Assembly: GCA_963814605.1 (NCBI GenBank)
Contig: CAWFDD010000003.1
Location: 609,734-673,733 of the forward strand
Source: an uncultured Acidobacteriota bacterium
GTDB lineage: Bacteria > Acidobacteriota > Terriglobia > Acidiferrales > UBA7541
Direction of reading: 5' to 3'
DNA: 64,000 nt
How positions within the stretch are numbered: the first letter of the stretch is position 1; each line of letters starts with the position of its first letter. This document shows, in pieces, positions 5,693 through 58,405 of the stretch. Under the pieces are notes generated by a model. The model searched no databases. It had not been told where the DNA came from and saw nothing but the letters and a program-made list of their open reading frames with translations. A program made the translations under genes and the position numbers.

Positions 5693-6316
5693 ATGTTGAG
5701 GAAATTCCAACTGGGAGCGGCGGTCGCGCTTTTACTGATTGTCTCTCCGTCGCGCGCTCAAGAGAAGGCAGACAAGAATCCTCCTGCGGCGGGGGAAACC
5801 GGCAGCGCGGCGCCAAAGTCGGCGACCGTTGACCCAAGCTATGTAATCGGCGGGCAGGATGTGCTTGATATCAGCGTTTGGAAAGAGGCTGAACTGACGC
5901 GAGTCGTTCCGGTGCGACCCGACGGCAAGATCTCGCTGCCGCTGCTGAATGATGTGCAGGCGGCGGGATTAACTCCGACACAGCTGGCGGCACAGATTAC
6001 GGAGAGTCTGAAGAAATTCGTGACCAATCCTCAGGTAACAGTGATCGTGACGGCTATCAACAGCCAGAGAATCTATATTCTCGGCGAGGTGAACCGCGCG
6101 GGCGCTTATCCGCTGTTGCCGAATATGACGGTATTGCAGGGATTGTCGAGCGCGGGCGGATTCACGCTGTTCGCCAATCTGAAGAAGATTTACATGTTTC
6201 GCATGGAGAACGGCAAGCAGGTGAAATACCCGTTCAACTACAAAGACGTGATCAACGGGAAAGCACCCGAGGAAAACGTGGTGCTCAAGGCCGGCGATAC
6301 GATCGTGGTTCCGTAG
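5693..6316 (+). CDS. Polysaccharide export protein, Wza/EpsE-like (Poly_export + SLBB)
   Basis: A signal peptide (MLRKFQLGAAVALLLIVSPSRAQE) is followed by ...YVIGGQDVLDISVWKE.ELTRVVPVRPDGKISLPLLNDVQAAGLTPTQLA..I. I prefer the ATG at 5693 (agggag RBS) over the GTG at 5675. Confidence 0.85.
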   Translation: MLRKFQLGAAVALLLIVSPSRAQEKADKNPPAAGETGSAAPKSATVDPSYVIGGQDVLDISVWKEAELTRVVPVRPDGKISLPLLNDVQAAGLTPTQLAAQITESLKKFVTNPQVTVIVTAINSQRIYILGEVNRAGAYPLLPNMTVLQGLSSAGGFTLFANLKKIYMFRMENGKQVKYPFNYKDVINGKAPEENVVLKAGDTIVVP

Positions 6317-6321
6317 GGGAG

Positions 6322-7827: not shown

Positions 7828-7891
7828 CGATGGAAGCGAAGGATGATGATCGGCGGGCTGGGCAAGAGATGCACATGGCAGGGAGGCCGGC

Positions 7892-9415: not shown

Positions 9416-9422
9416 GGAGAAC

Positions 9423-27052: not shown

Positions 27053-28075
27053 ATGATCATTACACGCACCCCGCTTCGCGTTTCCTTTTTTGGGGGTGGT
27101 ACCGACTATCCAGTCTGGTATCGCGAGCACGGCGGAGCCGTATTGTCCACGGCGATCGACAAGTACTGCTACATTACGTGCCGCAAACTCCCGCCCTTCT
27201 TCGATTACCGCAGCCGGATCTCGTATTCGAAGGTCGAAAACGTCATGGAGAACACCGCCATTGAACATCCCTCGGTGCGCGGATGTTTACAATTGTTGGG
27301 GATCAGCGAAGGTGTCGAGATTCACCACGTGGCCGATCTACCGGCGCGTACGGGCCTCGGGACGAGCTCTGCGTTCACTGTGGGACTTCTCCTTGGCCTA
27401 TATGGATTAGGCGATCGGATGCGTGACAAACATGCTTTAGCCCAGGATGCCATTCGTGTTGAACAGGAAGTTCTAAAGGAAACTGTCGGCACACAAGACC
27501 AAGTGGCCGCCGCCTACGGCGGATTCAACCACATCACCTTTCGAGTCGATGACAGCATCCAGGTCAAGCCCATGTTGGCTGCGGCTGGAAGGCTCTCCGA
27601 GTTGCAGAGTCACCTGGCGCTTTTCTTTACGGGCTTCTCGCGCATCGCGTCCGAAATAGCGCAGGAACAGGTCAAAGAAACGCCAAAGCGACAGACCGAG
27701 CTTACAACCATGCTGCAGATGGTCGACGAAGCGGTCGACATCGTGTCCAATAGCCGTCGACAGATTCGCGAGTTCGGAAGTCTGCTTCACGAGAGCTGGA
27801 ACCTGAAAAAGACTCTCACCAACAAAATAACCAATTCTCAGATTGACCAGATCTACGAAGCAGGGCTTGAAGCCGGCGCCATGGGCGGAAAGCTCCTCGG
27901 TGCTGGGGGCGGAGGTTTCATGCTGTTCTTCGTGCCGCCCGAGCGGCGCGAAGCGTTGACGTTGCGATTGCGCAAATTGCTGTGCGTTCCGTTCGCATTT
28001 TCAAATCGGGGCAGCCACGTCGTGGTTTACGAGCCTGAAGCGTCGTATGAAAGTGTGCCGGCGGTTTCGGTCTAG
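27053..28075 (+). CDS. hddA: GHMP-family sugar kinase, D-glycero-alpha-D-manno-heptose 7-phosphate kinase-like
   Basis: The N-terminus is MIITRTPLRVSFFGGGTDYPVWYREHGGAVLSTAIDKYCYI. The GHMP motif is LPARTGLGTSSAF, and GGKLLGAGGGGFMLFF follows. Confidence 0.8.
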   Translation: MIITRTPLRVSFFGGGTDYPVWYREHGGAVLSTAIDKYCYITCRKLPPFFDYRSRISYSKVENVMENTAIEHPSVRGCLQLLGISEGVEIHHVADLPARTGLGTSSAFTVGLLLGLYGLGDRMRDKHALAQDAIRVEQEVLKETVGTQDQVAAAYGGFNHITFRVDDSIQVKPMLAAAGRLSELQSHLALFFTGFSRIASEIAQEQVKETPKRQTELTTMLQMVDEAVDIVSNSRRQIREFGSLLHESWNLKKTLTNKITNSQIDQIYEAGLEAGAMGGKLLGAGGGGFMLFFVPPERREALTLRLRKLLCVPFAFSNRGSHVVVYEPEASYESVPAVSV

Positions 28076-28078
28076 TCC

Positions 28079-28822
28079 ATGTACGAGATTCCAGACGCCA
28101 TTATTTTATCGGGTGGCTTTGGCCTTCGGCTAAAGGGTGTCATTGGCGATGCTCCGAAGCCGATGGCGAAGATCGGCGGACGCCCTTTTTTGGAGCTGCT
28201 GCTGAAGCAATTGAAGCGCCGAGGATTTTCGCGGTTGATTCTGAGCGTGGGATATCGACACGAAGTGATCCGCGAACATTTCGGCGACCGAGCCTTTGGC
28301 ATGGAGCTCATCTATTCGATTGAGACCGCTCCTCTGGGGACGGGCGGCGCATTGCGTGAGGCGGCTCGCCACGTCTGTACCAAAAGTGCGCTGGTTATGA
28401 ACGGAGACAGCTACACCGATGTCGACCTTGACCGGCTCGCCCGGAACCACGGGAGCGGTAGCGCCGACGTCACAGTTGTAGTGATACCTGAAACACGCAG
28501 CGATGCGGGATCGGTCATCTTGGACCGAAACGGCAAAGTGATCACATTCTCTGAAAAGCAAGTTGTCCCCGGGTCTCGTTACTTGAGTGCGGGAATCTAC
28601 ATGTTGGAAATGAGCCTCGCAACCACCATTCCTCAGTCAGATAAGATATCGCTCGAGGAAAAACTGTTCCCCCAGTGGCTCGCGGATGGAAAAGATGTCG
28701 AAGGTTTCATCTTTGAGGGACGATGCCTGGACATCGGCACGCCCGAACGATTTCGCAAGGCCCAAGGCTTGCTCGAGAAGATAGAGGCGGAGCCCATTCT
28801 GGAAAGCGAGGGCCAATCGTGA
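28079..28822 (+). CDS. hddC: Sugar-1-phosphate nucleotidyltransferase, heptose-1-phosphate guanylyltransferase-like
   Basis: The sequence reads AIILSGGFGLRLKGVIGDAPKPMAKIGGRPFLELLL. Its position between the kinase and the gmhA/gmhB genes supports the call. Confidence 0.75.
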   Translation: MYEIPDAIILSGGFGLRLKGVIGDAPKPMAKIGGRPFLELLLKQLKRRGFSRLILSVGYRHEVIREHFGDRAFGMELIYSIETAPLGTGGALREAARHVCTKSALVMNGDSYTDVDLDRLARNHGSGSADVTVVVIPETRSDAGSVILDRNGKVITFSEKQVVPGSRYLSAGIYMLEMSLATTIPQSDKISLEEKLFPQWLADGKDVEGFIFEGRCLDIGTPERFRKAQGLLEKIEAEPILESEGQS

Positions 28823-29778
28823 AGAGTCTGATCACAGGAGCCGCCGGATTCATGGGACCCTTTCTCAGAGATCATTGTTTGCGCGCCGGCAGCGCCGTTC
28901 TGGGAATCGACATTTGTGAGCCTGGGGAACCGTGGGCCAGCGCTTCGTTCGAACACTGCGATGTCCGAGACTATGCGCGTTTTTCTCAGGTGATCTCGGA
29001 ATTCGAGCCCGATCGCATCTTTCACTTGGCCGCCCAAAGCTACCCCACCGTTTCGCTTGAAAAACCACGGGAGACGGTGGAGAGCAATTTGTGCGGAACA
29101 ATCAACCTATATGAGACCCTACGCTCAACTGGATTGAGACCTACGGTTGTTGTTGCCTGCTCGAGCGCAGAGTACGGCCCGGTGGCCGCGGAGGATATAC
29201 CGGTCAAAGAAACCCATCCGCTCCGCCCCCTGCACCCGTACGGAGTGAGTAAGGTCGGTCAGGATCTGATCGCGTCGCAGTATTTCATTAACTTTTCGAT
29301 TCCGACGATTCGAATCCGGATTTTCAATACGACGGGACCGGGGAAAATTGGCGATGTCTGCTCCGACCTAACGAAGCGGGCTGTTGAGCTAGAGATGGGA
29401 ATCAAACACCGGTTTTTGAAGGTGGGCAACCTGACGACTCGGCGGGCCATCGGGGACGTACGCGATCTTATACGCGCACTGTGGGTATCGTCGGAACGGT
29501 GCGATCTCGGCGAGGTCTACAATGTCGGCGCCGAATACGTTTATTCTGTGCAGGAAGTAATCGACGCAATCCACTCACAGATGAACATCAGCTTCGAGGT
29601 CCAGCAAGATCCTGCGCTGATGCGTCCCTCCGACGAGCCAGTGATCGCCGGCGACACAACCAAGTTTCGCAGCCGCTGCGACTGGAAGCCCGAGATTCCG
29701 CTTTCCGCTACCCTCAAGGACATGCTCGAGTGGTGGAGAGTCCGGCTGGCGAGCGCGACACAGGCGTGCAGACACTAG
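28819..29778 (+). CDS. Extended-SDR NDP-sugar dehydratase/4-reductase (Gmd/Rmd-like)
   Basis: The sequence reads VKSLITGAAGFMGPFL..., SSAEYG, PYGVSK and RIFNTTGPGK. The GTG at 28819 overlaps the upstream TGA. Confidence 0.8.
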   Translation: MKSLITGAAGFMGPFLRDHCLRAGSAVLGIDICEPGEPWASASFEHCDVRDYARFSQVISEFEPDRIFHLAAQSYPTVSLEKPRETVESNLCGTINLYETLRSTGLRPTVVVACSSAEYGPVAAEDIPVKETHPLRPLHPYGVSKVGQDLIASQYFINFSIPTIRIRIFNTTGPGKIGDVCSDLTKRAVELEMGIKHRFLKVGNLTTRRAIGDVRDLIRALWVSSERCDLGEVYNVGAEYVYSVQEVIDAIHSQMNISFEVQQDPALMRPSDEPVIAGDTTKFRSRCDWKPEIPLSATLKDMLEWWRVRLASATQACRH

Positions 29779-29939
29779 GGATCATTGCCGCGGCTGTTCC
29801 ATCGTCGGAACCGTCCCGCGTCCTGCGCAAGAGGCCCCGAGGCCGTAAGCGAGGCACACTGCGGAAGTCGGGAAGCGTCGTTTCACGACAGCAGCCCCTT
29901 TCAAAGCGAGTTGGACGCGTCGCGAAGGAGATAGACCTT

Positions 29940-30593
29940 ATGGATCGCGCTATAGAGCTCATCCGAGATCGGGTCAAGCGCAGCATTGAGGTAAAGCAAA
30001 AGTTGCTGCTGGATCCCACGTTCTGCGAACTTACGGCGAAGGCCGCGATGCAAATCGTCAGGTCGCTTCAGGCCGGCCGCAAAGTCCTCTTTTTCGGAAA
30101 TGGCGGAAGCGCTGCGGACGCGCAGCATCTGGCTGCGGAATTTACGGGACGATATCTGAAGGAACGGCGGGCGTTGCCGGCGTTGGCGCTACATGCGAAC
30201 TCGTCATCGGTGACCGCCATCGGTAACGACTACGGCTTTGATTCCGTGTTTGCGCGGCAGCTGGAGGGCCTGGGCGAAAAAGGGGATGTGGCGGTGGGGA
30301 TCTCGACCAGCGGGAATTCGCGCAACGTGGTCCGAGCGCTGGAGGTCGCAAAATCGAAATCGATTTACAGCGTTGCGCTTACGGGCGCATCCGGCGGCCT
30401 TATGAAGAGAATCGCAGACTGCACGATTTGTGTGCCATCGAAGGAGACACCGCGCATTCAGGAGTGCCATATCCTCACTGGTCATTTGATCTGCGAGATC
30501 GTGGAGCTCATGCTTTTCGACGACGATGGCAACTCGCTCCAAGAAGTCAATATCACAGCCGCGCCTGCGCCGCGCCGTTCCGGGGATAGATAG
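29940..30593 (+). CDS. gmhA: Phosphoheptose isomerase (SIS domain)
   Basis: The sequence reads ...VLFFGNGGSAADAQHLAAEFTGRY...ALHANSSSVTAIGNDYGFDSVFARQ...GISTSGNSRNV. The ATG at 29940 has a gaaggag RBS. The first 153 codons of the track ORF are an Arg-rich overlap with the upstream gene. Confidence 0.9.
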   Translation: MDRAIELIRDRVKRSIEVKQKLLLDPTFCELTAKAAMQIVRSLQAGRKVLFFGNGGSAADAQHLAAEFTGRYLKERRALPALALHANSSSVTAIGNDYGFDSVFARQLEGLGEKGDVAVGISTSGNSRNVVRALEVAKSKSIYSVALTGASGGLMKRIADCTICVPSKETPRIQECHILTGHLICEIVELMLFDDDGNSLQEVNITAAPAPRRSGDR

Positions 30594-30607
30594 GAGCTAC
30601 GTTCAAC

Positions 30608-31198
30608 TTGCTGAGAATCGCTTTCTCAAACGACAGAAGTGAGGTCAGGACGCCCGCACTCTTCATCGACCGCGACGGCGTCATAAACGTCAAGAGACCC
30701 GGCGACTACGTTTTGAATTGGTCACAGTTCGTCTTTGTTCCAGGCATCCGGGCGGCTTTGAGGGAGCTCTTCTCTCTGGGACTGCCGATGATAATTATTT
30801 CGAACCAAGCGGCGGTCGGTAAGGGTCTCCTCTCGATTGCTGTCTTGGAGGAAATAACCGCCTCATTGCACAGAAGCCTGCTCGCGGACGGCACTGCACT
30901 TTCTGCGGCCTACTATTGCCCACATAAAGCTGACGAGGGTTGTGTTTGCAGAAAGCCCAAGCCCAGATTGCTTTTCAAAGCGGCCGAGGATTTCAACATA
31001 GACCTCCGCCGATCCATTTTCATCGGCGATTCTGACATAGACATGCAAGCTGCCCGGGCTGCGGGCTGTGCGTCGGTGCTGTTCGGCGCGGATAACGCTT
31101 CACAGTCGTTGGCGCTAACGGATCTTCCTATCGCGCGCAGCGTCACGGACCTCTTCCCGATGGTCGCGAAGTGCCTACAGGCCACAGAACATGTTTGA
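30608..31198 (+). CDS. gmhB: D,D-heptose 1,7-bisphosphate phosphatase (HAD-IIIA)
   Basis: The sequence reads ALFIDRDGVIN...ISNQAAVGKG...YYCPHKADEGCVCRKPKP...IFIGDSDIDMQAARAAG. Confidence 0.85.
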   Translation: MLRIAFSNDRSEVRTPALFIDRDGVINVKRPGDYVLNWSQFVFVPGIRAALRELFSLGLPMIIISNQAAVGKGLLSIAVLEEITASLHRSLLADGTALSAAYYCPHKADEGCVCRKPKPRLLFKAAEDFNIDLRRSIFIGDSDIDMQAARAAGCASVLFGADNASQSLALTDLPIARSVTDLFPMVAKCLQATEHV

Positions 31199-46145: not shown

Positions 46146-47082
46146 GTGCAAGTGGGCTACCTCTCTGGTGCTATGACCTACTCGTGGCAGTACATCCGCA
46201 CCTCGCCTCCCACGGGTGAACCGGAAAATGGGCTGGTGTTCTGTCGCGTAAAGAGTTGGCTTACCGGTTCTCAGATCATTGCGGCCCTCTTTGCGACTCA
46301 CACGAAGAATTGCAGTTCCTACTTCAGCACTTGCAAGCTGCCGTAGAACGCGAGAACTGGAGATGTCTGGAAGTCCGCTCGATTACCGGAAATCTGGACC
46401 AAACAAACGACAAGAATGGCACTCGGCCGCCCCTCGCTTTCTTTCCCCATATTCTCGATCTCCGTCCAATCCTGACCGACGTGTCCCGGACTTTCGATAA
46501 GGATTGCGTCCAGCGGCGCATCCGTCATGCGGAGCGAGCCGGTCTAAGCGAGAAGTCAGGTGAGTCTGAGGATCTCCTGGGAGGGTTCTATAATCTATTC
46601 GTCACCACGCGCGGTCGACACCAGTTGCGGTCGTCACCGTACGTCTGGTTTAAGAATCTAATTTGCTTCCAAGGCGATGCCGCCGAGATTCGCGCGGCGT
46701 ATCAGACTGGGAAGCCGGTTGCCGCCATTCTGACTCTGCGATTCCGAAACGTTTCCTTTTACAAATATAGATGTTCCGACACACTCTTCAATAAACTCGG
46801 TGCAACGTCTTAGATCTTCTGGAATGCCGTTGCAGCTGCGACGGTAAATGGTGCAATAGCATTCGACATCGGCCGAGCACGAGGGAACCATGCGGGCCTT
46901 CTCACGTTCAAGAATCGCTGGGTGAGTCAACTGCACCTTTCGTGTGTTGGTCGTTTCCAAGAACTTCGACTGTTGAGTCGTTCGAGGGATGGCGTTTCAA
47001 GGTTGCGAAGCGGATTTTCTCTCATATGTCCGACATGCTACTTACCCTCACTGTGGACATTATCTACGGCCATACAGGATAG
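46146..47082 (+). pseudogene. Decayed paralog of the FemAB-like gene at 40409-41458
   Basis: Homology to the intact copy is spread over three reading frames. The lesions I could identify are:
- Loss of the N-terminus.
- A deletion of about 20 nt removing RRLVSLP.
- An in-frame TAG at 46811-46813 where the paralog has Trp.
- A -1 shift near 46925-46935.
The native-like end RIFSHMSDMLLTLTVDIIYGHTG-stop finishes at 47082. Confidence 0.8.
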
Positions 47083-48646
47083 ACTGTCTCTTGGAGGACC
47101 GGCGAGATACGTCGGACTTCCCGATCTGGGGTGGGAGTTCGAAGTCAAGCTGTCCGAAAGTACAGGTCAGCCTACTCTTGAATTGACAAGTACGCGACCT
47201 GCGGCGTTGCACTTCGATGGGACATCCGATTTTGAGGATAAGTTTTCCACAGGCGAAAATCGGTTGACAAAAACCGTGATTCAACCGCTATCCGACTATT
47301 ATCGGGTTCCTGACTGCTTGCTTGGGCAGATTCTAGAGCCAAAGTTGTCTGGAAACGCGGGATATTTTCAGTTCGGTCCCAAAATCACTTGCTACGGGCT
47401 GGCAGAGTCTGGCGTGGCGGCGAGGTTTGAGTCATCAACGCGCTACGACGCTAGCAAGGACCTTAAGATCAATGGCGTACTTCGCCTTCCATTCAGTCCC
47501 ACAGAGGTGATTGAGAACCTCCGCCGGGAACGTTACGTGGCGGACTTGGTGCCCGGCAGAGAACGGGTTGTAACACAGGAATGGGTTCTCAAGTCTTACT
47601 ACGCGGTTCGAAAATTGTTGCCAGCTTCGATTCGCCGTCGCCTCCAGAGAGCTTATTTCAGCGACTGGGGGAGTAGACCGTTCCCGGCATGGCCGGTGGA
47701 CTGCACCGTAGATGCGCTACATGAAGAACTGCTGAAGTTATCCATGCAAGCTGCTGGCATTCGGAGGGCGCCGTTCATCTGGTTCTGGCCGGAAGGAGCG
47801 CCCAGTTGCCTGATCATGACGCACGATGTTGAGACGTCCGTCGGTCAGGACTTTACTTCCCAGTTGATGGATCTCGACGAGTCTTACGGGATCAAGGGCT
47901 CGTTTCAGGTAATTCCCGAGAAGCGTTACGAGGTTACGGACGAATACATCGAGGGAATCAGGCGTCGCGGATTCGAATTCAATCTCCACGATCTCAATCA
48001 CGACGGGAATCTATATCGGGACCGCGGTGAGTTTCTGCGACGGGCGGCGACGATCAATGAATATGCCCGCAAGTATCGCGCCCAGGGGTTCCGTGCCGGA
48101 GCAATGTATCGCAACTTGGACTGGTATGATGCGTTCGAATTCGCCTACGATATGTCGCTGCCAAACGTCGCCCATCTCGAACCGAAAAGGGGTGGCTGTT
48201 GTACTGTGATGCCTTTCTTTATAGGGAGAATTCTCGAACTTCCTCTGACTACCATCCAGGACTACTCTCTTTTTCACATCCTAGGTGAGTACTCGACTGA
48301 TCTGTGGAAGAAACAGCTGAGCCTGATTCGCCAACGGAATGGCTTAATGAGTTTTATCGCGCACCCCGACTATTTGATCGACCGACCTGAGAAAAGGATA
48401 TATGAGTCACTCCTCGATTACTTGAGAGAGATGATTGACCGAGAGAGAATATGGGCGGCGCTACCGACGGATGTCGATCAATGGTGGAGAGCGAGGAACC
48501 AAATGAAGCTGGTTCGAAAGGGCGCTGATTGGGAGATCGTAGGCCCACAAAAGGAACGAGCGCGAATCGCGTATGCCGTGTTGGATGGAGATCGGTTGAG
48601 GTACGACGTTGCTGATGCTCCCGTCCCTGGAGGAGCGCATTCTTAG
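46922..48646 (+). CDS. Polysaccharide deacetylase-like (NodB/CE4-fold) protein
   Basis: The sequence reads ...CLIMTHDVETSVG...FEFNLHDLNHDGN...SFIAHPDYL. The first ~55 codons of the track ORF are the read-through frame of the upstream pseudogene. The real start is probably downstream of 47082 (TTG or GTG candidates near 47183-47276). Confidence 0.65.
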   Translation: MSQLHLSCVGRFQELRLLSRSRDGVSRLRSGFSLICPTCYLPSLWTLSTAIQDRLSLGGPARYVGLPDLGWEFEVKLSESTGQPTLELTSTRPAALHFDGTSDFEDKFSTGENRLTKTVIQPLSDYYRVPDCLLGQILEPKLSGNAGYFQFGPKITCYGLAESGVAARFESSTRYDASKDLKINGVLRLPFSPTEVIENLRRERYVADLVPGRERVVTQEWVLKSYYAVRKLLPASIRRRLQRAYFSDWGSRPFPAWPVDCTVDALHEELLKLSMQAAGIRRAPFIWFWPEGAPSCLIMTHDVETSVGQDFTSQLMDLDESYGIKGSFQVIPEKRYEVTDEYIEGIRRRGFEFNLHDLNHDGNLYRDRGEFLRRAATINEYARKYRAQGFRAGAMYRNLDWYDAFEFAYDMSLPNVAHLEPKRGGCCTVMPFFIGRILELPLTTIQDYSLFHILGEYSTDLWKKQLSLIRQRNGLMSFIAHPDYLIDRPEKRIYESLLDYLREMIDRERIWAALPTDVDQWWRARNQMKLVRKGADWEIVGPQKERARIAYAVLDGDRLRYDVADAPVPGGAHS

Positions 48647-49095: not shown

Positions 49096-51285
49096 ATGGG
49101 GAACACTAATCGACGCGAAACCGAAAACCCTTCCCTCGGCGGACACAGGCGTGGGCGGAGGACAACAAGACTTGCCGCCCTCGCTTTGGCCGTCATCGTG
49201 TTGGGCGTGACGATAGTAGGAGCCTTCTACTGGAAATCTTTTTCAAAAACGAACCACCTGTCGCGCGGGGCGATCTCCGAGAAGATCGCGTGGCGCATAG
49301 GGTTATTCGCCCGCAAGGCTGCGGGCCGCATTCCCGAGTTGACATGGTCTGAACTCTGGCAGATGGTCCGAAATCGGGGCGGTTTTGGATTGGAAAACTT
49401 CGTGCAAGGAGTCAGTCTTGATGGCAGCGTCCACAACGGATACGATTCCGCTTCCGATCTTCAAGCGGCTTCACAAATCTTTAGTGTACGGTGTGCGATG
49501 TGCCACGGGAGCGATGGAGCCGGAGGGGAGCATGGTGCTCCACCGCTGAATCACGCAGGACTCAAACATGGTGACAGCGACCTCGCTATTTACAAGGTCT
49601 TGCGGGATGGTGTTCCTAACACGGCTATGCAGGCCCCCTCCATTTCTTTAGTACAGCGTTGGCAACTCGTCGGTTATGTGAGACACCTGCAGTTCCATGG
49701 TGTCGCCTCGAGTGCCGGTAAAGCCCCGTTGGACATCGAGGTAAACAGGGAGCGGATCCTTGCAGCTGGGGAGAAAACCGATGAGTGGTTGACTTATTCG
49801 GGATCTCTTGACGGGCATCGCTACACGCCGCTGAACCAAATTACTCCCGCAAACGTCTCGCGACTTCGAATTCGATGGGTTCGACAGTTCGATACCAGAC
49901 TACCGTCTTTCGAAGAGACTCCGATTGTGGTTGACGGCGTAATATTCATGACTGAGCCTCCTTCCGATACGATGGCCGTTGATGCTTTCGACGCGAAGTC
50001 CGGGGATCTAATTTGGAGATATTCCCGAAGCGTTCTCACCGATGTGTACTCGCTGTTCGGCAGAGAAAACCGAGGGCTCGCAATTCTTGACAGCGGTCTA
50101 TATTTCACCAGCTTGGATGGATATCTAGTCTGTATCAATGCAAATACGGGGCAGCTGGTTTGGGAGACTAAGGTAGCGGAGCCTTCGCAATATTACTCGC
50201 TGAGTGCGGCGCCCCTCATCGTTAATCGTTCCGTCGTTGTTGGGGTTGCAGGGGGCGAGTACGGAATTCGTGGCTTCTTATCTGCCTACGACGCGGAAAC
50301 TGGAAAGAAGCAATGGCAGTTCGATACTATCCCGGGACCAGGCGAGCCCGGTCACGAGACCTGGAGCGGTGATTCCTGGCGTACCGGCGGCGGGGGAACT
50401 TGGGTCACGGGAAGCTATGACCCATCGCTCGACCTTCTTTACTGGGGCGTTGGGAATCCGTCTCCGGACCTTTTGGGAGACGTTCGCCCCGGCGACAATC
50501 TATATTCCGATAGCGTGATCGCGCTGCACCCCGGCACGGGGAAGCTAGCCTGGCACTTCCAATTCACTCCCCACGATGTACACGACTGGGATTCAGGCCA
50601 GACTCCGATTTTGGCAGACATTGCGATCAACGGTCGAATTCGCGGAGTGATGTGTTGGGCGAACAGAAATGGCTTTTACTATGTGCTGGATAGGGTTACG
50701 GGAGAATTCTTGACGGGTGCGCCCTTCGTCGAACAGAATTGGGCGAAGGGTCTTGATTCGGTGGGACGACCAATCCTGGCGGAAGCGGCCGATATACCAA
50801 AGATCGGGCGGGTCACTAGACCCGGCGTCGGAGGTGGCACAAATTTTCAAAATGCGGCGTTTGACCCCCTGAGGAAACTGGTGTTTGTACCTGCGACCGA
50901 AAGTGTTTCCGTGTATGCGAAGTCTGTCCGCGCGGTCCGTCAGGCCGGTGGGTTTTACAACGGTAGCGCGGCAGCTGATCTCGAACCACTGATTCCGGTC
51001 GTCCGCGCGCTCGACGCTGGCACGGGAACAAAAAAATGGGAACGCTTCTCGCCACCGCTGAGCGGGGATTATCCCCGTTACGGCGGCCTTCTCGCGACTG
51101 GTGGAGGCCTGGTTTTCGGTGCCTCAGGAGGGTCCGTGTTTGCGTTGGATTCTACGACTGGACATGAGGTTTGGCGGGTTTTTCTCGGAGGAAATACCGA
51201 CGCGGCTCCGATCTCCTTCACAGTAGATGGACGACAAGTTATCGCGGTGTTCGTCGGTCGGGGGCTGTTCCTTTTCGGACTATAG
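49096..51285 (+). CDS. Membrane-anchored quinohaemoprotein: N-terminal class I cytochrome c followed by a PQQ-type 8-bladed beta-propeller dehydrogenase
   Basis: The TM anchor is LAALALAVIVLGVTIVGAFYW. The haem motif is CAMCH, with a distal Met in NTAMQA. The sequence ...EWLTYSGSLDGHRYTPLNQITPANVSRL follows. Repeated A.D..TG...W blades are present (DAKSGDLIW, NANTGQLVW, DAETGKKQW, HPGTGKLAW, DAGTGTKKW, DSTTGHEVW). Confidence 0.8.
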   Translation: MGNTNRRETENPSLGGHRRGRRTTRLAALALAVIVLGVTIVGAFYWKSFSKTNHLSRGAISEKIAWRIGLFARKAAGRIPELTWSELWQMVRNRGGFGLENFVQGVSLDGSVHNGYDSASDLQAASQIFSVRCAMCHGSDGAGGEHGAPPLNHAGLKHGDSDLAIYKVLRDGVPNTAMQAPSISLVQRWQLVGYVRHLQFHGVASSAGKAPLDIEVNRERILAAGEKTDEWLTYSGSLDGHRYTPLNQITPANVSRLRIRWVRQFDTRLPSFEETPIVVDGVIFMTEPPSDTMAVDAFDAKSGDLIWRYSRSVLTDVYSLFGRENRGLAILDSGLYFTSLDGYLVCINANTGQLVWETKVAEPSQYYSLSAAPLIVNRSVVVGVAGGEYGIRGFLSAYDAETGKKQWQFDTIPGPGEPGHETWSGDSWRTGGGGTWVTGSYDPSLDLLYWGVGNPSPDLLGDVRPGDNLYSDSVIALHPGTGKLAWHFQFTPHDVHDWDSGQTPILADIAINGRIRGVMCWANRNGFYYVLDRVTGEFLTGAPFVEQNWAKGLDSVGRPILAEAADIPKIGRVTRPGVGGGTNFQNAAFDPLRKLVFVPATESVSVYAKSVRAVRQAGGFYNGSAAADLEPLIPVVRALDAGTGTKKWERFSPPLSGDYPRYGGLLATGGGLVFGASGGSVFALDSTTGHEVWRVFLGGNTDAAPISFTVDGRQVIAVFVGRGLFLFGL

Positions 51286-51839: not shown

Positions 51840-52922
51840 ATGAGTGAAAGCATGCCTAACACGGATCTTCCATCGATTGCGCCTTCCAGCGTGCCGGCAC
51901 GAAAGTACGAGCGACGTTTTTTTGCCGCCAAACCTGGTGCTTACATACTGATCGTTATCGCCTCGCTGTTGGCAGCGTGGCCTTTTAGTCTTCGGAAGCA
52001 CAGCATCTTTTTCTGTCAAGCTCCTGGACTCGGATCGGACGACTACCTGGCCGATTGCGAGACGACGGCCTATGGTGACTATGATTACGGCGCCTTCTGG
52101 TTCGGATTGGAACCTAAGGCGACGAATGCTGCGGCAAACGCTCAGGTGCTCTTCCTCGGGGGTAGCCGCACGGAGTTTGGGTTTTCCACCAAGACGACGG
52201 CGGATTGGTTTTCGTCGCTTCCTGCAAGCTACTACCTGTTGGGTTTTGCGTCCAACGGTAATTACAATTTTGAAGCGCCGCTTTTGCGCAAGCTCCGCCC
52301 AAAAGCTGTGGCTTATGTGATCAATCTCGATTTATTCTTCGAGCAAACCGACGCCCCACCTGCCAAGGTTGTCATGCGGGACCCCGGGGCGAGGTTTCGC
52401 TATGAAGGTAAGCGCGAGTGGCAGGTGATCCAGAAGGCAATTTGTACGAACCATCGGTCCATTTGCGGCAACGGGCGCGCATTTGTTCGGTCGCGAGCGA
52501 CAGGTGCCTGGCGTTTGTCGGGCGGCCAGTTCGCGAGTTGGCCTGTGTCGTATGACGAGAGCGTCGATCAGCAGATGGTGAAAACCTACATAAGTGCGGC
52601 AAACGAATTTTTGTCCAACCTATCTGTTCGTCGCGATTGTGTGATACTCACGCTGGTTCCCACAGTCGACACGAGGTCCTGGGACCACCTCGGTGCAACA
52701 TCCATTGGAACGGCGAAAGCAATTGCAGCGGGTCTCGGACGGAATCTGGTGGCGCCGGAACTGGCGGGACTCAACACATTCGATGGTTCGCACCTTGACC
52801 CTGAGAGTGCCGAGCGCTGGTCCGCAGCCTTCGCCGAAGCCGCTGGCCCGCAGATTCGGCGGTGTCTAAATGATTCGATGGAAAGTACTAGTCTCGGAGA
52901 CGTTCGTCTAAGGCCCGAGTGA
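51840..52922 (+). CDS. Membrane-anchored SGNH-like, DltD-like protein
   Basis: The N-terminal TM segment is AYILIVIASLLAAWPF. A block-I-like motif LFLGGSRTEFG lies near residue 105, and a block-V-like DxxH motif (FDGSHLD) near residue 316. Size and topology resemble DltD. No search was run. Confidence 0.5.
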   Translation: MSESMPNTDLPSIAPSSVPARKYERRFFAAKPGAYILIVIASLLAAWPFSLRKHSIFFCQAPGLGSDDYLADCETTAYGDYDYGAFWFGLEPKATNAAANAQVLFLGGSRTEFGFSTKTTADWFSSLPASYYLLGFASNGNYNFEAPLLRKLRPKAVAYVINLDLFFEQTDAPPAKVVMRDPGARFRYEGKREWQVIQKAICTNHRSICGNGRAFVRSRATGAWRLSGGQFASWPVSYDESVDQQMVKTYISAANEFLSNLSVRRDCVILTLVPTVDTRSWDHLGATSIGTAKAIAAGLGRNLVAPELAGLNTFDGSHLDPESAERWSAAFAEAAGPQIRRCLNDSMESTSLGDVRLRPE

Positions 52923-54811
52923 CGATGGACTGGCTCCCTATCACTTCGGATTTCCGACGTGAGCTGCGCGCGGTGGTTGAGGCGCCATTAGCGGGTCGTC
53001 TCGAAAAGCTCGCCGAGCTTGCCCAACACCGCCTCGGCCTGGTTGAGACGATTCTGCTCGATCGCGCGCTTGGCGAAGTGCCTGTCGAGCAGACCGCCGG
53101 CTTTTCGAAGGTACGGCTTGCGATTCTTGCTTCCTCGACGGTCGACCACCTGGCGCCTGCGATCCGAGTCGCCGGTCTGCGCCGAAAGCTGCGGATCGAG
53201 GTCCACATCGGCCCATACGGGCAATACCGCCAGGAATTGCTCGATGCGACGTCGCACCTCTATCAACTCCAGCCCCAGATCGTCTTGCTATCGCTGACGG
53301 CCCGTCAGGCTGTTTCGGGTGTGTCTTTGGCAGCGACGGCAGCCGAAGTCGACGCGGCCATTGGGACGTCGATCGATGAGTTGCGCGTCCTCTGGCGGAC
53401 CGGCCACGAGCGTCTTAAAGCGACCGTGATCCAACAGACATTTCTCAATTTCGCTGACCCGGTATTCGGCAGCTATGACCGCCTGGTGCCGGGCGCGCCC
53501 GCACGGGTAATTGCCCTCCTTAACGACCGGCTCTCAGAGGCCGCGGCAAGAGATGGCGTCTTGCTCGTCGACGTCGCGCAAGCAAGCCAACGTGACGGAC
53601 TGGACGCGTGGTTCGACATCACGCGCTGGCTCCAGGGGAAATTCGAAATCGCTCCCCAGGCAGCGCCCGCCTACGCCGAGATGGTGGCGCGGGTCATTGC
53701 CGCGGAGCGCGGGCTCTCCAAGAAGTGTCTTGTGCTCGATCTCGATAACACACTGTGGGGCGGCGTAGTCGGCGACGATGGAGTGCAGGGGATTGTGCTG
53801 GGCGAAGGTAGCGGAGCCGGTGAAGCGTATCTGGCTTTGCAGCGGTACGCTTTGCAGCTCAAGGAGCGTGGGGTGATACTAGCCGTCTGCTCCAAGAACG
53901 ACCCTGCGACCGCAGAGGCTGCGTTTCGCGAGCATCCGGAAATGGTCCTACGAATGTCTGACTTCGGGGCCTTTGTAGCGAACTGGGACGACAAGGCGCT
54001 CAACCTCGAGCGCATTGCGGCACAGCTGAACATCGGGATGGACAGCTTGGTTTTTGTCGATGACAATCCCGCGGAACGGGCACGCGTTCGCCAGAGCCTC
54101 CCGTCCGTGGCCGTACCCGAGTTGCCCGCCGATGCCGCCCGCTACGTCCGCTGCCTGGCCGACGCCGGGTATTTCGAGGCGGTCGCGTTTACTGTCGAGG
54201 ATCAGCAACGGGGCGAGCAGTACCGGGCCAACGCCTTGCGAGAGGCAGTTCTGCAGTCTTCCGAGAATCTGGACGATTTCCTGCGTGGGCTTCAGATGTC
54301 CGTGGAGTTCACGCCGTTCCAGACAGTCGATCTGGCGCGCGTGACACAGCTGATTGGAAAGACCAATCAATTCAACCCGACAACTCGCCGGCGTTCGGCT
54401 CGAGATGTGGCGGCATTCATGGCTTCCGACGCGTGTATCACGCTCCAATTCCGCCTCATCGACAGATTCGGAGATAACGGTCTTGTAAGCGCGATGATTC
54501 TTTGCTCGGACCCTGAAGAGCCGGACCTATTTGAGATAGACACCTGGGTCATGAGCTGCCGGGTCTTCGGCCGGCAGCTCGAATTCGAAGCGATGAACAT
54601 CGCCGTAGAAGCCGCACGTCGACGGGGAATACGAACGCTCCGCGCTGACTACATCCCGACCGCGAAGAACGGCGTGGTCGGCGAATTGTACCCGACTCTA
54701 GGCTTCACTCGCGCGCAACGGAGCGCACCCGTTGCGGGCGCCACTCGATGGATCTTAAGCGTGAATGATTATGTAGGCCGCTCCACGCATATTATGCGGT
54801 GCTCGGACTAA
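52919..54811 (+). CDS. FkbH-like protein (HAD-IIIC phosphatase/transferase domain with a C-terminal GNAT-like domain)
   Basis: The HAD core is CLVLDLDNTLWGGVVGDDGV..., followed by ILAVCSKND...FVANWDDKALNLERIAAQLNIGMDSLVFVDDNPAER. The C-terminal part reads ...RLIDRFGDNGLVS...DTWVMSCRVFGR. The start overlaps the upstream stop (GTGA). Confidence 0.85.
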   Translation: MTMDWLPITSDFRRELRAVVEAPLAGRLEKLAELAQHRLGLVETILLDRALGEVPVEQTAGFSKVRLAILASSTVDHLAPAIRVAGLRRKLRIEVHIGPYGQYRQELLDATSHLYQLQPQIVLLSLTARQAVSGVSLAATAAEVDAAIGTSIDELRVLWRTGHERLKATVIQQTFLNFADPVFGSYDRLVPGAPARVIALLNDRLSEAAARDGVLLVDVAQASQRDGLDAWFDITRWLQGKFEIAPQAAPAYAEMVARVIAAERGLSKKCLVLDLDNTLWGGVVGDDGVQGIVLGEGSGAGEAYLALQRYALQLKERGVILAVCSKNDPATAEAAFREHPEMVLRMSDFGAFVANWDDKALNLERIAAQLNIGMDSLVFVDDNPAERARVRQSLPSVAVPELPADAARYVRCLADAGYFEAVAFTVEDQQRGEQYRANALREAVLQSSENLDDFLRGLQMSVEFTPFQTVDLARVTQLIGKTNQFNPTTRRRSARDVAAFMASDACITLQFRLIDRFGDNGLVSAMILCSDPEEPDLFEIDTWVMSCRVFGRQLEFEAMNIAVEAARRRGIRTLRADYIPTAKNGVVGELYPTLGFTRAQRSAPVAGATRWILSVNDYVGRSTHIMRCSD

Positions 54812-54812
54812 T

Positions 54813-55055
54813 ATGACAGATCAAACCATCCTAGATGCATTCACCCGCATCCTCCGAGATGTTTTGGGTGACGAGTCGATCGTTCTAACGCTTGAGACCA
54901 AACGCGACGAAGTGGCCAATTGGGACTCCTTCGGCTACGTTAACTTCATCGTTGCAGTGGAGATTGAATTTCACGTGAAGTTTGGTGTGGCTGAAATTGA
55001 GTCTTTCGAGAACGTAGGGGCGATTGTGCATCGAACCAAGGAGCTGTTGGCGTAA
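54813..55055 (+). CDS. Acyl/peptidyl carrier protein (80 aa)
   Basis: The size and four-helix pattern fit a carrier protein. The candidate phosphopantetheine site is ...VANWDSFGYVNFIVAVEIEF. It starts 2 nt after the FkbH-like stop. Confidence 0.75.
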   Translation: MTDQTILDAFTRILRDVLGDESIVLTLETKRDEVANWDSFGYVNFIVAVEIEFHVKFGVAEIESFENVGAIVHRTKELLA

Positions 55056-55243
55056 TCCAGCGGCCCGTACTCACGAGAGCCATTCTGGTCCGTGGTCGGT
55101 GATGTTTTGCCGATGCTGATCAGTTCATAGCGAGCTCAAGTGGATCAGATTTGCGTATTTGTTGTCGGCTTGGCCGGTCGCCGCAACGGTGATCGGATTT
55201 CCCGATCCGAGTATTTCCATCGAGCCGGTACGCCGAGTCGAAA

Positions 55244-56722
55244 TTGGACATTAGGGAAACATTGAGCAGTTCATCCTTGGACGAGCCTTCTGTGACGTTC
55301 ACGGAACAGGATGTTGCCGCCTTTAGCGATGCTTCCGGCGACCGCAATTCCCTCCATCTCAATCACGATTACGCCCGACGCACTCCTTATGGGCAGCCCG
55401 TTGTGTTCGGCTGCTTGGGAGCGATGGCATGTTTGGGGCACCTCCGGTTACCCGCCGGCTGGTCAGCTACTTCGCTCGAAGCCGAGTTCGCCCGGCCAAT
55501 ATTTTCGGGTGTCACGTATCGCATCGAGACTTCAGAGAAAGACGGCAGGTGGCGCGTGCGGCTTTTCGACGGGAGCATGTACGTAGTCTCTGTCACGGTG
55601 ACCGCTGAGCCTTCCCCAAGAACTGAATCGCCACAGGAGATCGAGGGCGTCTGTACGTTTGAACGATGTGAGGCAGCCGTGCGGAAGGCGGAAGATATCC
55701 TTCCAGGGCTGGAGATTTCCGGGGAATACGGCTGCAAGACTGGCGGTTTAGCTACACTAGCGGCGCGATGGGGGGGCGTTGATCGCCTACTGGCGAGATT
55801 GCTCTGTTGGAGCAGCTATCTGGTTGGGATGGAGCTGCCGGGAGAGTCGGCTCTTTTCTCCAAGCTTGTGTTGCGCTTCCAGAGAACGGATCCATGCCCT
55901 GCTACGATGGGATACCGCGCTTTGGTTGCGTCTATTGATTCGCGGTTCGGGCAAATCGTTATGGATGTTTCTCTTTTCGATGGCCGTTCCACCATTGCCT
56001 CCGGGCAGTGCTACTCCTTCATACGCCCCCCCGTGCCGGAACTTGAAGAGATCGATTCCATTGGAGTGAGACCGGACAGCTTAGCGGGACGAGCGGCTGT
56101 GATCCTTGGGTCGAGCCGAGGATTGGGGGCGGAAGTGAAGCGAGCTCTTGAGTCGAGGGGTGCGGTGGTTTATGGAATGGCACGCTCTCCCAAGGCAAGT
56201 GAGCTATCGCGGACTGAGGTAGGCGACGCGGCGGACCCTCAGGCGTTGCGTCGATTGCGGCAGCGGGTGGTAAGAGACCATGGCCGTCTGGATTTTCTTA
56301 TCTGTAATGCGTGCCCTTCCGTCCTACCGCTGCGCCTGGAGCCGAATGCCGCCGGACGAATCAGAGCATATATTGACTTGGCCGTGTCTCTCACGCTCGC
56401 TCCACTATCCGAGTTCTTGGAATTATTGAATTCGAGCGACGGCTGTGTCGTCATCGTCTCTTCAGTCTTTGTGGAGCGTCCCGTAAAGGAGTTCCCGCAC
56501 TATATCGCGGCGAAGCAAGCTGTGGAGATGTTGGGCCGAGTCGCTTCCTTGCAATATCGGCGCGTTCGCACCCTCGTCGTGCGGCCCCAGAAGCTACTCA
56601 CCGCTATGACCAACACACCTTTGGGGCGTTTGGACGCCATATCGCCGAGGCTGATCGCCAACCGTATTGCCACGCGCCTAGAAGATCCGCTGGAGCCGGG
56701 GATGACGGAAATCCTCGGTTGA
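55244..56722 (+). CDS. Fusion protein: MaoC-like (hotdog) dehydratase domains plus a C-terminal short-chain dehydrogenase/reductase
   Basis: The N-terminal part reads ...FTEQDVAAFSDASGDRNSLHLNHDYARRTPYGQPVVFG, a MaoC signature. The C-terminal part has AAVILGSSRGLGAEV (NAD(P)-binding) and SSVF...HYIAAK (S...YxxxK). The start is uncertain (TTG at 55244, 55262 or 55277, or GTG at 55292). Confidence 0.75.
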   Translation: MDIRETLSSSSLDEPSVTFTEQDVAAFSDASGDRNSLHLNHDYARRTPYGQPVVFGCLGAMACLGHLRLPAGWSATSLEAEFARPIFSGVTYRIETSEKDGRWRVRLFDGSMYVVSVTVTAEPSPRTESPQEIEGVCTFERCEAAVRKAEDILPGLEISGEYGCKTGGLATLAARWGGVDRLLARLLCWSSYLVGMELPGESALFSKLVLRFQRTDPCPATMGYRALVASIDSRFGQIVMDVSLFDGRSTIASGQCYSFIRPPVPELEEIDSIGVRPDSLAGRAAVILGSSRGLGAEVKRALESRGAVVYGMARSPKASELSRTEVGDAADPQALRRLRQRVVRDHGRLDFLICNACPSVLPLRLEPNAAGRIRAYIDLAVSLTLAPLSEFLELLNSSDGCVVIVSSVFVERPVKEFPHYIAAKQAVEMLGRVASLQYRRVRTLVVRPQKLLTAMTNTPLGRLDAISPRLIANRIATRLEDPLEPGMTEILG

Positions 56723-56776
56723 GAGATCGATACTCGAGAGCACAGCTGCACCCTATGGGCCAGAGGAACCACTAGA

Positions 56777-58405
56777 ATGCTGTTCAACTCTTATGAGTTC
56801 ATTTTTGTCTTCCTGCCGCTGACACTGGGAGTGTTCTTCGCCCTGGGCGCCATTTCTCGCACGTGGGCACTCCGCTGGATCATCGTCGCATCGCTCTTCT
56901 TCTATTTTTGGTGGCGGCCTCTAAACGTCCTGATCATCGCGCCGTCTATTTTGGTCAACTTCTTCCTGGCGCGGTTGCTGCAACGGTTGGGGAGGACGAA
57001 CAAGCGCGGTTCCTCAAAGGCGGTTCTTGCGCTCGGCGTCGCGTTCAATGTCGCCTTTCTCGGCTACTTCAAGTACGCGAATTTTGGCGTCAGCGCAATG
57101 AATGATGCATTTGGCACACACATCGTGTTGGCGCAGATCATCCTCCCGCTTGGAATCTCATTCATCACCTTTCAAAAGATTGCCTTCTTGGTTGATGTCC
57201 ACGCACAGAGAATCGGGTCGTTCACTCTGCAGGACTATTGCTTGTTCGTGCTTTTCTTCCCGCAGCTGATCGCCGGCCCCATCGTGCATTACCGTGAAAT
57301 GATGCCGCAGTTCCAGAGCGCTCCTTGCGTCTTCGATAGGGACAATGTATCCGTGGGTCTGACGCTCTTGGTGTTCGGCTTGTTCAAGAAGGTGTTTCTC
57401 GCCGACAGTATCGGACCACTGGTAACTTCAATCTACAACCAAGCCGCATCAGGTCACGCCTTGTCTCTTTTGCCAGCTTGGATGGCGGCCATAGGCTTCA
57501 CACTACAAATCTATTTCGATTTTTCAGGCTACACGGACATGGCACTCGGAAGCGCACGGTTTTTCGGAATACGGCTGCCGCCGAACTTCAACTCGCCGCT
57601 TCGGGCCACGAGCATCATCGATTTCTGGCTCCGTTGGCACATGACGCTGACCCGTTTCTTGACGGCATACATCTACAATCCAGTAGCGCTTTCATTAACC
57701 CGCCGCCGCTTAGCCAAAGGCCAGACAGGCATCAGCGCCAGCCACGCCTCCGTCGGCGCGTTCATAGAGCTGTTGATGTTCCCCACCCTGCTGACGATGT
57801 TAGTTGCCGGAACGTGGCATGGCGCCGGCTATACCTTCATTCTCTGGGGTCTCATCCACGGCCTGTTTCTAACCTGCAATCATGGGTGGCGGATGCTTGG
57901 CCCGAGGCTGTGGCGCGACAGAGCGAGCTACTCGCGGTTCATGCAACCGTTCGGCTTCTTGCTGACTTTCTTGTGTGTCGCGAGCTCGATGGTGGTATTC
58001 CGCTCGTCGACGCTGAAAAGTGCCTCCCGCGTGTTACGGGGCATGCTCGGTCTAAATGGTATCGCGCTGACAGACTCAATCTATGATCATCTTCATCCGC
58101 TCGGAAGGTTGCTTCACTACGCGGGCGTCGCTCGGGGCATGGACGCGGGCGTCGATTTTAAGGGGACGTCGGTTTGGATTCTGATCACGGGGATCATCGC
58201 CCTCGCCTGCCCCAATACGCTTCAACTACTGGATCGCTACGAGCCAGCGCTGGGGTGGAAGCCGAAGCCAGACGGTATAGCCGTCCTTGGAAAGCCCATT
58301 GTATGGAACGCATCACTGGCATGGGCAGCGGCGGTGGCGGTGGTTGCGGCTATCGCGATTCTCCACGTCGGTGGTGGAAGCGAATTCTTGTACTGGCAGT
58401 TCTAA
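56777..58405 (+). CDS. MBOAT-family membrane O-acyltransferase (AlgI/DltB-like)
   Basis: The N-terminus is MLFNSYEFIFVFLPLTLGVFF. The conserved-His region reads ...DFWLRWHMTLTRFLTAYIYNP. There are at least 10 TM segments. Confidence 0.9.
   Translation: MLFNSYEFIFVFLPLTLGVFFALGAISRTWALRWIIVASLFFYFWWRPLNVLIIAPSILVNFFLARLLQRLGRTNKRGSSKAVLALGVAFNVAFLGYFKYANFGVSAMNDAFGTHIVLAQIILPLGISFITFQKIAFLVDVHAQRIGSFTLQDYCLFVLFFPQLIAGPIVHYREMMPQFQSAPCVFDRDNVSVGLTLLVFGLFKKVFLADSIGPLVTSIYNQAASGHALSLLPAWMAAIGFTLQIYFDFSGYTDMALGSARFFGIRLPPNFNSPLRATSIIDFWLRWHMTLTRFLTAYIYNPVALSLTRRRLAKGQTGISASHASVGAFIELLMFPTLLTMLVAGTWHGAGYTFILWGLIHGLFLTCNHGWRMLGPRLWRDRASYSRFMQPFGFLLTFLCVASSMVVFRSSTLKSASRVLRGMLGLNGIALTDSIYDHLHPLGRLLHYAGVARGMDAGVDFKGTSVWILITGIIALACPNTLQLLDRYEPALGWKPKPDGIAVLGKPIVWNASLAWAAAVAVVAAIAILHVGGGSEFLYWQF

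Follow-up and report, generated by a model that had tools for sequence, protein, structure and literature searches.

A conserved FkbH-carrier-MBOAT gene module of bacterial polysaccharide loci: a candidate carrier-dependent system for O-acylation of exported glycans

We analysed a 64,000-nucleotide stretch of DNA from an uncultured Acidobacteriota bacterium (assembly GCA_963814605.1, contig CAWFDD010000003.1, positions 609,734 to 673,733; hereafter the window), in which five neighbouring genes, here called g1 to g5, encode a membrane-anchored periplasmic protein, an FkbH-type loader, a stand-alone acyl carrier protein (ACP), a fusion of a MaoC dehydratase with a short-chain dehydrogenase/reductase (SDR), and an MBOAT acyltransferase. 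We judge it probable that these genes form an MBOAT/SGNH-like system that depends on a carrier protein and attaches a small hydroxy-acyl group, by O-acylation, to an exported polysaccharide; we infer that the group is glyceryl or lactyl, as we do its acceptor and its transfer. The conserved unit consists of four genes, those for g1, FkbH, the 80-aa carrier and the MBOAT, and their association is far beyond chance. From its sequence features the module, present in many soil bacteria, appears to be a real and widespread form of MBOAT-SGNH envelope acylation that has not been described before. The five open reading frames (ORFs) and their predicted functional sites are as follows.

g1, 51840-52922, + strand, 360 aa: type-II membrane-anchored periplasmic alpha/beta protein with a transmembrane (TM) segment at residues 27-52; proposed terminal acyltransferase and SGNH-like MBOAT partner
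g1 Ser109 codon, 52164-52166, + strand, and Asp315-x-x-His318 codons, 52782-52793, + strand
g2, 52919-54811, + strand, 630 aa: FkbH-type loader comprising FkbH_N, HAD-IIIC phosphatase and C-terminal acyl-Cys domains
g2 DLD274-276 codons, 53738-53746, + strand, and Cys547 codon, 54557-54559, + strand
g3, 54813-55055, + strand, 80 aa: stand-alone ACP with predicted phosphopantetheine Ser39 in WDS37-39 (54921-54929)
g4, 55244-56722, + strand, 492 aa: cytoplasmic fusion of a MaoC hot-dog dehydratase and an SDR reductase; optional, would tailor the acyl group on the carrier
g5, 56777-58405, + strand, 542 aa: MBOAT transmembrane acyltransferase of PatA/AlgI architecture with putative catalytic His348
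g5 His348 in WHG, 57815-57823, + strand
g5 C-terminal hexapeptide FLYWQF, 58385-58402, + strand: FxYxxF 'acyl shuttle' motif with Tyr539 as the proposed acyl-Tyr

The genes are tightly packed, with a 4-nt overlap of g1 and g2 and gaps of 1 nt (g2-g3), 188 nt (g3-g4) and 54 nt (g4-g5). A first-pass annotation of the sequence had described five co-directional genes at these coordinates, and translation verified both the genes and the motifs it had named (GGS107-109 and the DxxH of DGSH315-318 in g1, WDS in g3 and RWH286-288 in g5). The profile searches it had proposed confirmed FkbH, MaoC_dehydratas with adh_short, and MBOAT; ACP-like matches to g3 fell below cutoffs and DltD gave no match.

A scan of species-representative genomes for g1 recovered 80 loci, which together with the window give 81 related loci. 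The hosts belong to Acidobacteriota, Gemmatimonadota, Alpha-, Beta- and Gammaproteobacteria and Nitrospira (at least five phyla or classes), and g1 identity drops to 40% among these loci. The closest relative of the window is an Acidobacteriota metagenome-assembled genome (MAG) with 74-85% protein identity. Sixty-three loci were informative, each with at least 6.5 kb downstream of g1, and partners were sought within 10 kb. FkbH was found near g1 in 55 of these, the ACP in 60 and the MBOAT in 59, with all three present in 52. The order g1-FkbH-ACP-MBOAT is nearly constant, being kept in 52 of the 63 informative loci, and several seeming exceptions are frameshifted long-read assemblies. Across all 81 loci, homologs were counted for g1 in 80, FkbH in 65, ACP in 69, MBOAT in 63, a pyrroloquinoline quinone (PQQ) dehydrogenase encoded upstream of g1 in 36 and the MaoC-SDR g4 in 12; all other window genes recur in at most 13 each. 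The co-occurrence beyond this genome that had been predicted for the module is borne out across phyla for g1, FkbH, ACP and MBOAT. The fifth gene did not hold up as a constant member, since the MaoC-SDR fusion is present in only 17 of the 63 informative loci (about 27%).

The g2 protein carries FkbH_N (Pfam) and scores 302 bits against TIGR01686 FkbH (cutoff 146.65), and it has the HAD DxD, S/T-K and DD motifs as well as the C-terminal Cys of the FkbH family. Residues D274, D276, S325, K326, K359, D381, D382 and C547, the last within MSCRVF, are kept in at least 98% of 62 homologs. Among solved structures, 3slr (BF1531; 2.5e-69) is the closest, and no TM segment is predicted in g2. The g3 protein has the length of about 80 aa and the conserved D-S site of an ACP, with W37 and D38 invariant and S39 retained in at least 90% of 69 homologs. 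Its ACP family matches lie below cutoffs (PP-binding, E 0.017; NF009104, E 2e-7), and its closest solved relative is the putative ACP 2lml (5e-15). The formation of glyceryl-ACP by FkbH and a discrete ACP is established in polyketide pathways (PMC7489565). By homology, g2 would load a glyceryl unit from 1,3-bisphosphoglycerate onto the discrete carrier g3. No AMP-binding domain was found in the five genes or their neighbours; FkbH stands in that place.

An FkbH protein and a stand-alone ACP with a dehydratase and a reductase are typical of polyketide precursor pathways, and the cassette might be read as one for a small molecule, polyketide- or tetronate-like, in which glyceryl-ACP is a building block and the MBOAT merely acylates or exports a lipid product. 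We consider this highly improbable. No ketosynthase, FabH-like enzyme or acyltransferase domain was found among the Pfam-annotated window ORFs from 19.8 kb onward or in the inspected loci, and the sole nonribosomal peptide synthetase gene seen, in L003, is not conserved. The partners that do not vary are a periplasmic protein and a polytopic MBOAT bearing an acyl-shuttle Tyr.

The g5 protein matches MBOAT in Pfam and aligns with DltB (6bug) at 3.6e-30 over residues 123-408, while TIGR04091, the DltB equivalog model, gives 167 bits, below its cutoff of 375. About 10 TM segments are predicted, two of which (466-485 and 507-538) lie beyond the DltB-homologous core; a C-terminal extension of 134 aa is not in DltB. 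H348, invariant in 59 homologs, falls opposite the FWHG segment of DltB when g5 is aligned with 6bug. The protein ends in SEFLYWQF, and SEF[LI]Y[WF][QN]F, the same or with a one-residue variation, stands at the end of 56 of 57 full-length homologs. PatA auto-acetylates the Tyr of its C-terminal FxYxxF, from which the acetyl group passes to the SGNH protein PatB (Anderson, Schultz et al., PMC12148441); in the Dlt pathway FxYxxF is carried on a separate microprotein, DltX (PMC12148441). The invariant His and the two-TM C-terminal extension ending in FxYxxF that mark PatA/AlgI-type MBOATs are both found in g5. Thus, of the earlier description of g5 as a Dlt-like MBOAT, the DltB homology stands, but the architecture is that of PatA/AlgI with a fused shuttle and not that of DltB plus DltX. 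The shuttle motif was not part of that description, nor was the PQQ dehydrogenase as a partner; its expectation that default annotation would call such a protein AlgI is correct, as the Joint Genome Institute (JGI) names such MBOATs 'AlgI' or 'DltB'. Judged by these motifs, the module would combine a Dlt-like donor side (loader and carrier) with a PatA/AlgI-like MBOAT whose shuttle is fused on two extra helices.

The strongest support for a link between carrier and MBOAT comes from sister modules, listed here.

L038, 9938-15817: E1/E2-type sister module
L086, 819-8766: E1/E2-type sister module
L087, 3918-8548: E1/E2-type sister module
L088, 4035-10699: E1/E2-type sister module
L090, Achromobacter sp. 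DH1f, AYMF01000033.1, 1-11162: AMP-ligase-type sister module
L089, Granulicella tundricola MP5ACTX9 (a cultured acidobacterium), CP002480.1 564364-577920, module at 5013-10777: sister module with FkbH

In L038, L086 and L088, FkbH is replaced by a thiamine pyrophosphate (TPP)-dependent E1 (fused alpha-beta) and a lipoyl E2 acyltransferase, and in L087 E1 and E2 are fused and followed by the MBOAT at the contig end. These loci retain the MBOAT, here with FLYFQF at its C-terminus; as far as the contigs reach, they also hold the ACP (WDS) and a member of the g1 family, often with a PQQ dehydrogenase. The E1/E2 loader presumably resembles the QncN/L/M glycolyl-ACP loader. In L090 the MBOAT (FLYFQF) is directly followed by a PP-binding carrier and a DltA-like AMP-binding ligase, with an acyl-CoA dehydrogenase among them; two ALGX-domain proteins precede the MBOAT, AlgF is present, and the genes lie beside a GT2/TPR-NfrA_C synthase-type locus. 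The cluster of this MBOAT holds 162 member sequences. The order in L089 is a GDS-motif membrane-anchored protein, MBOAT (FLYFQF), FkbH, ACP, MaoC and SDR, with MaoC and SDR as separate genes. The GDS-motif SGNH-like protein of L089 appears to be split between neighbouring ORFs of 165 and 155 aa that lie in different frames, pointing to either a frameshift or a sequencing error. Constant across all variants are the carrier with its DS motif, the MBOAT and a periplasmic Ser-type partner (g1-family, ALGX-domain or GDS-motif), whereas the loader varies. Because the loader swaps leave the carrier-MBOAT pair intact, they provide strong comparative evidence that the carrier would feed the MBOAT. The earlier proposal that FkbH takes the place of the DltA ligase fits these natural swaps, by E1/E2 in L038, L086 and L088 and by an AMP-ligase in L090. 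Our literature search turned up no account of a system combining FkbH, ACP and MBOAT, and none of its E1/E2 or ligase counterparts in diderm bacteria; a 2021 review names ACP only as a hypothetical donor.

The same comparison bears on whether two unrelated functions simply lie side by side, with g5 and g1 as an acetyl-CoA-dependent O-acetylation pair (PatA/PatB- or AlgI/AlgJ-like) and FkbH, ACP and MaoC-SDR serving a separate cytoplasmic step, e.g. N- or O-acylation of a nucleotide sugar by a GNAT/FemAB-like enzyme of the locus. PatA uses acetyl-CoA, MBOATs with a fused FxYxxF are described as having no carrier (PMC12148441), g5 has exactly this fused architecture, and several FemAB/GNAT-like transferases are encoded in the window. 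These window FemAB/GNAT genes are not kept with the module (at most 3 of 81 loci), however, while the ACP lies directly beside the MBOAT (60 of 63 loci), and loci with otherwise different genes keep this pairing even where E1/E2 or an AMP-ligase takes the place of the loader. Based on these results we regard mere adjacency as improbable.

The periplasmic protein g1 belongs to an orphan family. It has one TM segment, which is N-terminal, and we place the protein in the periplasm on account of this segment and of six invariant Cys. Neither Pfam nor NCBIfam gave a match, including the ALGX and GDSL models of Pfam; a Pfam search including DltD at E<=10 with 55 family members gave none either, and a profile search against Protein Data Bank (PDB) sequences found nothing. 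Weak profile matches to Ran GTPase and gp120 were judged to be chance. The family is nonetheless large, with at least 678 matches in 90% clusters and 1015 representatives at 50% identity (E<=1e-3), and every source name seen for its members is 'hypothetical protein'. Among 80 homologs, G107, S109, G135, D315 and the six Cys are invariant, with H318 kept in 79 and N162 in 69.

A first AlphaFold2 model, of full-length g1 with 32 close homologs, reached a mean predicted local distance difference test score (pLDDT) of 67.6 and gave only noise in Foldseek (e.g. rhamnose isomerase); it was replaced by a second model of residues 52-352 built on an alignment of 55 diverse homologs. This model (pLDDT 93.3, predicted template modelling score 0.92) shows an alpha/beta/alpha fold in which Ser109 lies at the beta1/helix junction, Gly135 follows beta2, Asn162 lies at the end of beta3 and Asp315-x-x-His318 immediately precedes a long C-terminal helix. 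In the predicted structure, the order and placement of Ser, Gly, (Asn) and Asp-x-x-His correspond to the canonical SGNH blocks I, II, III and V. Foldseek placed PAF-AH Ib alpha at ranks 1-7 and a Streptomyces rimosus lipase at rank 17 in the PDB, and esterase, SGNH and GDSL entries at ranks 1, 6, 7 and 9 in BFVD. The model thus points, weakly, to g1 being a highly diverged SGNH-like protein and not a member of the DltD family. Of the earlier label 'SGNH/DltD-like', the motif placement and the weak Foldseek ranks favour the first half, and the lack of any Pfam match in 55 members speaks against the second. One metagenomic protein, P0377 (707 aa), has a g1-family domain at residues 402-705 fused to an N-terminal region of about 400 aa that consists of two similar, uninformative membrane-anchored repeats.

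The MaoC-SDR fusion is an optional add-on to the module. It matches MaoC_dehydratas and adh_short in Pfam, its motifs are intact (hydratase GDRNSLH, Rossmann GSSRGLG and the YxxxK motif as YIAAK), and no TM segment is predicted. Where present, the fusion sits between ACP and MBOAT, as in the window, or after the MBOAT. Loading modules of some bryostatin-type polyketide synthases have been proposed to yield D-lactyl-ACP, a background point for which our literature search gave no citation. We suggest, with low confidence, that g4 turns glyceryl-ACP into another C3 2-hydroxyacyl-ACP, most simply lactyl-ACP.

We propose the following sequence of events. In the cytoplasm, by homology, the HAD domain of g2 (Asp274/Asp276) would dephosphorylate 1,3-bisphosphoglycerate, and the glyceryl unit would be held on Cys547 before passing to the phosphopantetheine at Ser39 of g3. 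In a more tentative tailoring step, g4 might dehydrate glyceryl-S-ACP to pyruvoyl and then reduce it, probably giving lactyl-S-ACP; where g4 is absent, the carried group would stay glyceryl. On the model of PatA and DltB/DltX, acyl-ACP would dock at the cytoplasmic face of g5, and on the periplasmic side Tyr539 of the FLYWQF shuttle would receive the acyl group from His348. From the acyl-Tyr, the group would move to Ser109 of g1, part of a putative Ser109/His318/Asp315 triad, and g1 would then esterify a hydroxyl of the polymer that is made by the surrounding locus and presumably exported by Wzm/Wzt. Glyceryl and lactyl substituents are chemically known on exopolysaccharides (EPS) (PMC4432689), and our literature search found no described transferase for glyceryl or lactyl esters on them.

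Several observations weigh against this scheme. Fused-FxYxxF MBOATs are described as acyl-CoA users without a carrier (PMC12148441), so g5 could use acetyl-CoA. No Foldseek match of the g1 model reached E<=0.001 (E 0.13-0.6 and template modelling scores of 0.28-0.46 for the best SGNH matches), none of DltD, PatB and AlgX is in its top 50, and profile searches with g1 give no match, so that the SGNH assignment is weak. All 80 related genomes recovered by the scan are MAGs. Furthermore, three alphaproteobacterial loci (L033, L056 and L073) have g1-ACP-MBOAT with no FkbH within 10 kb, and a Gemmatimonadales locus (L017) has only PQQ-g1-MBOAT, the same MAG carrying a complete copy (L018). In L072, g1 stands beside the PQQ enzyme only, with no ACP or MBOAT nearby. 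In loci without a nearby FkbH, loading may be done in trans or by a different type of loader. A 629-aa ORF of L033 was considered as a hidden FkbH and rejected, being secreted and without a Pfam match; in the set of loci it has a single homolog, an ORF of L053 at 33% identity. Both L033 and L073 retain an upstream MaoC-SDR despite having no FkbH within 10 kb.

The likely acceptor is suggested by the genomic setting. The entire window is a polysaccharide locus on the + strand, with UDP-glucose dehydrogenase, several GT4 and GT2 glycosyltransferases, nucleoside diphosphate (NDP)-sugar genes and a Wzy_C protein, and it also encodes FemAB-like and AsnB-like genes related to XrtA/PEP-CTERM EPS systems. 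Wzm/Wzt genes lie upstream of the module, and RmlC, DUF4910, a sugar C-methyltransferase, a nucleotidyltransferase and a PIG-L deacetylase are encoded downstream. Most of the other loci inspected are likewise polysaccharide loci, with Wzx, Wzy, GT2, GT4, Wzz, Wzm/Wzt or Poly_export genes. The core logic of the first-pass annotation, an FkbH protein and a stand-alone carrier beside an MBOAT and a membrane-anchored periplasmic Ser/Asp/His protein in a polysaccharide locus, agrees with these findings.

The module could work as proposed but acylate another envelope molecule and not the polysaccharide of its locus: peptidoglycan, a lipid or lipoglycan, or a protein that is secreted or of PEP-CTERM type. 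Some loci are indeed poor in glycosyltransferases (L004), no carbohydrate-binding module can be recognised in g1, whose fold matches are weak, and in the closest relative an exosortase (EpsH) gene lies directly upstream of g1 (L001, 9122-9817; L002, 469-1164). Such an acceptor nevertheless seems unlikely to us, as most contexts inspected are polysaccharide loci and the window module itself is flanked by glycosyltransferase/ABC-exporter genes on one side and dTDP-sugar genes on the other. The L001/L002 copy of the module lacks the MaoC-SDR and is followed by a Methyltransf_21 gene.

A candidate accessory sixth component is encoded directly upstream of g1. Its coordinates and those of three homologs are as follows.

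Window, 49096-51285, + strand: PQQ/cytochrome-c dehydrogenase with a TM segment at 22-49, cytochrome c and a PQQ beta-propeller
L001, 16301-18499: homolog
L003, 16495-18654: homolog
L086, 819-2912: homolog

The window protein has an N-terminal cytochrome c domain (Pfam PQQ and Cytochrom_C), and its best NCBIfam match is TIGR04528, 'acido-empty-quinoprotein group A', at 471 bits, below the cutoff of that model. Like g1, it is placed in the periplasm because of its single N-terminal TM segment. Homologs occur within 10 kb of g1 across phyla, in 34 of the 63 informative loci, mostly directly upstream or convergent downstream. In L073 a soluble PQQ-type GSDH takes its place. One may speculate that this periplasmic dehydrogenase oxidises or otherwise acts on the module product. 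A broader proposal would make the module one member of a large, so far unrecognised diderm class of carrier-fed MBOAT translocases with interchangeable loaders (FkbH, TPP-E1/lipoyl-E2, AMP-ligase) and varied non-acetyl EPS groups. In the present branch, once the polymer is exported, the PQQ enzyme would oxidise the hydroxy-acyl ester that it carries, so that glyceryl might become tartronyl, or lactyl pyruvoyl. We hold this to be possible but doubtful; if true, post-export oxidative tailoring of polysaccharide substituents would be without known precedent.

Comparison with known systems sets the module apart from each of them. In the Dlt pathway (DltA-D and DltX), which D-alanylates Firmicutes teichoic acids, a cytoplasmic loader likewise charges a phosphopantetheinyl carrier of about 80 aa, and a DltB-homologous MBOAT moves the acyl group across the membrane, as we propose for the module. 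The proposed relay from an acyl-Tyr in FxYxxF to a Ser of a membrane-anchored extracytoplasmic protein is also shared. In contrast to the adenylating ligase of Dlt, the loader of the module is an FkbH-type HAD/acyl-Cys enzyme, and the acyl group would therefore be a hydroxy acid and not D-alanine. Additionally, the shuttle motif is fused to the MBOAT C-terminus (no search was aimed at a separate DltX-like small ORF), g1 has no detectable DltD homology, and the module hosts are diderm, with EPS or O-polysaccharide as the likely acceptor.

PatA/PatB, AlgI/AlgJ/AlgF/AlgX and WssFGHI share with the module an MBOAT with two extra C-terminal TM helices ending in FxYxxF, a separate N-terminally anchored periplasmic partner with Ser...Asp-x-x-His and, as proposed for the module, a Gram-negative envelope polymer as acceptor. 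Those systems use acyl-CoA and no carrier (PMC12148441), whereas the module keeps a dedicated ACP and loader beside the MBOAT. With the polyketide FkbH/ACP pathways (tetronates; methoxymalonyl-ACP, e.g. Mad7/Mad8 and Mad14/Mad12) it has in common a TIGR01686 loader with HAD and Cys residues followed by a discrete ACP gene. In contrast to those pathways, it contains no ketosynthase, FabH-like or FkbG/I/K-type enzymes, and its product is proposed to go to the MBOAT and not to a polyketide synthase.

The mechanism of MBOAT-SGNH envelope acylation has been worked out only recently, and a carrier-fed donor route is so far established only for D-alanine on Gram-positive teichoic acids. In current accounts the carrier occurs only in the Dlt pathway and all fused-motif MBOATs use acyl-CoA. 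If our proposal is true, the module would represent a third combination, of a carrier-fed donor with a fused acyl shuttle, and the donor side would be modular. It would also offer a concrete genetic candidate for the placement of glyceryl or lactyl esters on bacterial exopolysaccharides and give the orphan g1 family a testable function. Such substituents alter the charge, gelling and hydration of polymers, which bears on soil aggregate biology and on industrial gums.

Other features of the window were recorded as well. A scan for promoters and terminators gave matches only at chance level. The sole Rfam match, c4-a1b1 at 55164-55213 (+ strand) in the 188-nt gap between the ACP and MaoC-SDR genes, is sub-threshold (29.7 bits against a gathering score of 46.7; E 3e-4) and is probably a chance hairpin. 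A 574-aa ORF at 46922-48646 (+ strand) has no Pfam or NCBIfam match, and its homologs lie near the module only in four Acidobacteriota/Bryobacterales loci (L006, L009, L010 and L011). Finally, a five-gene run at 27053-31198 (+ strand), comprising a GHMP kinase, a nucleotidyltransferase, a GDP-mannose-dehydratase-like enzyme, a SIS isomerase and a HAD phosphatase, resembles an NDP-heptose pathway and suggests a polymer with heptose or a modified deoxy-sugar.

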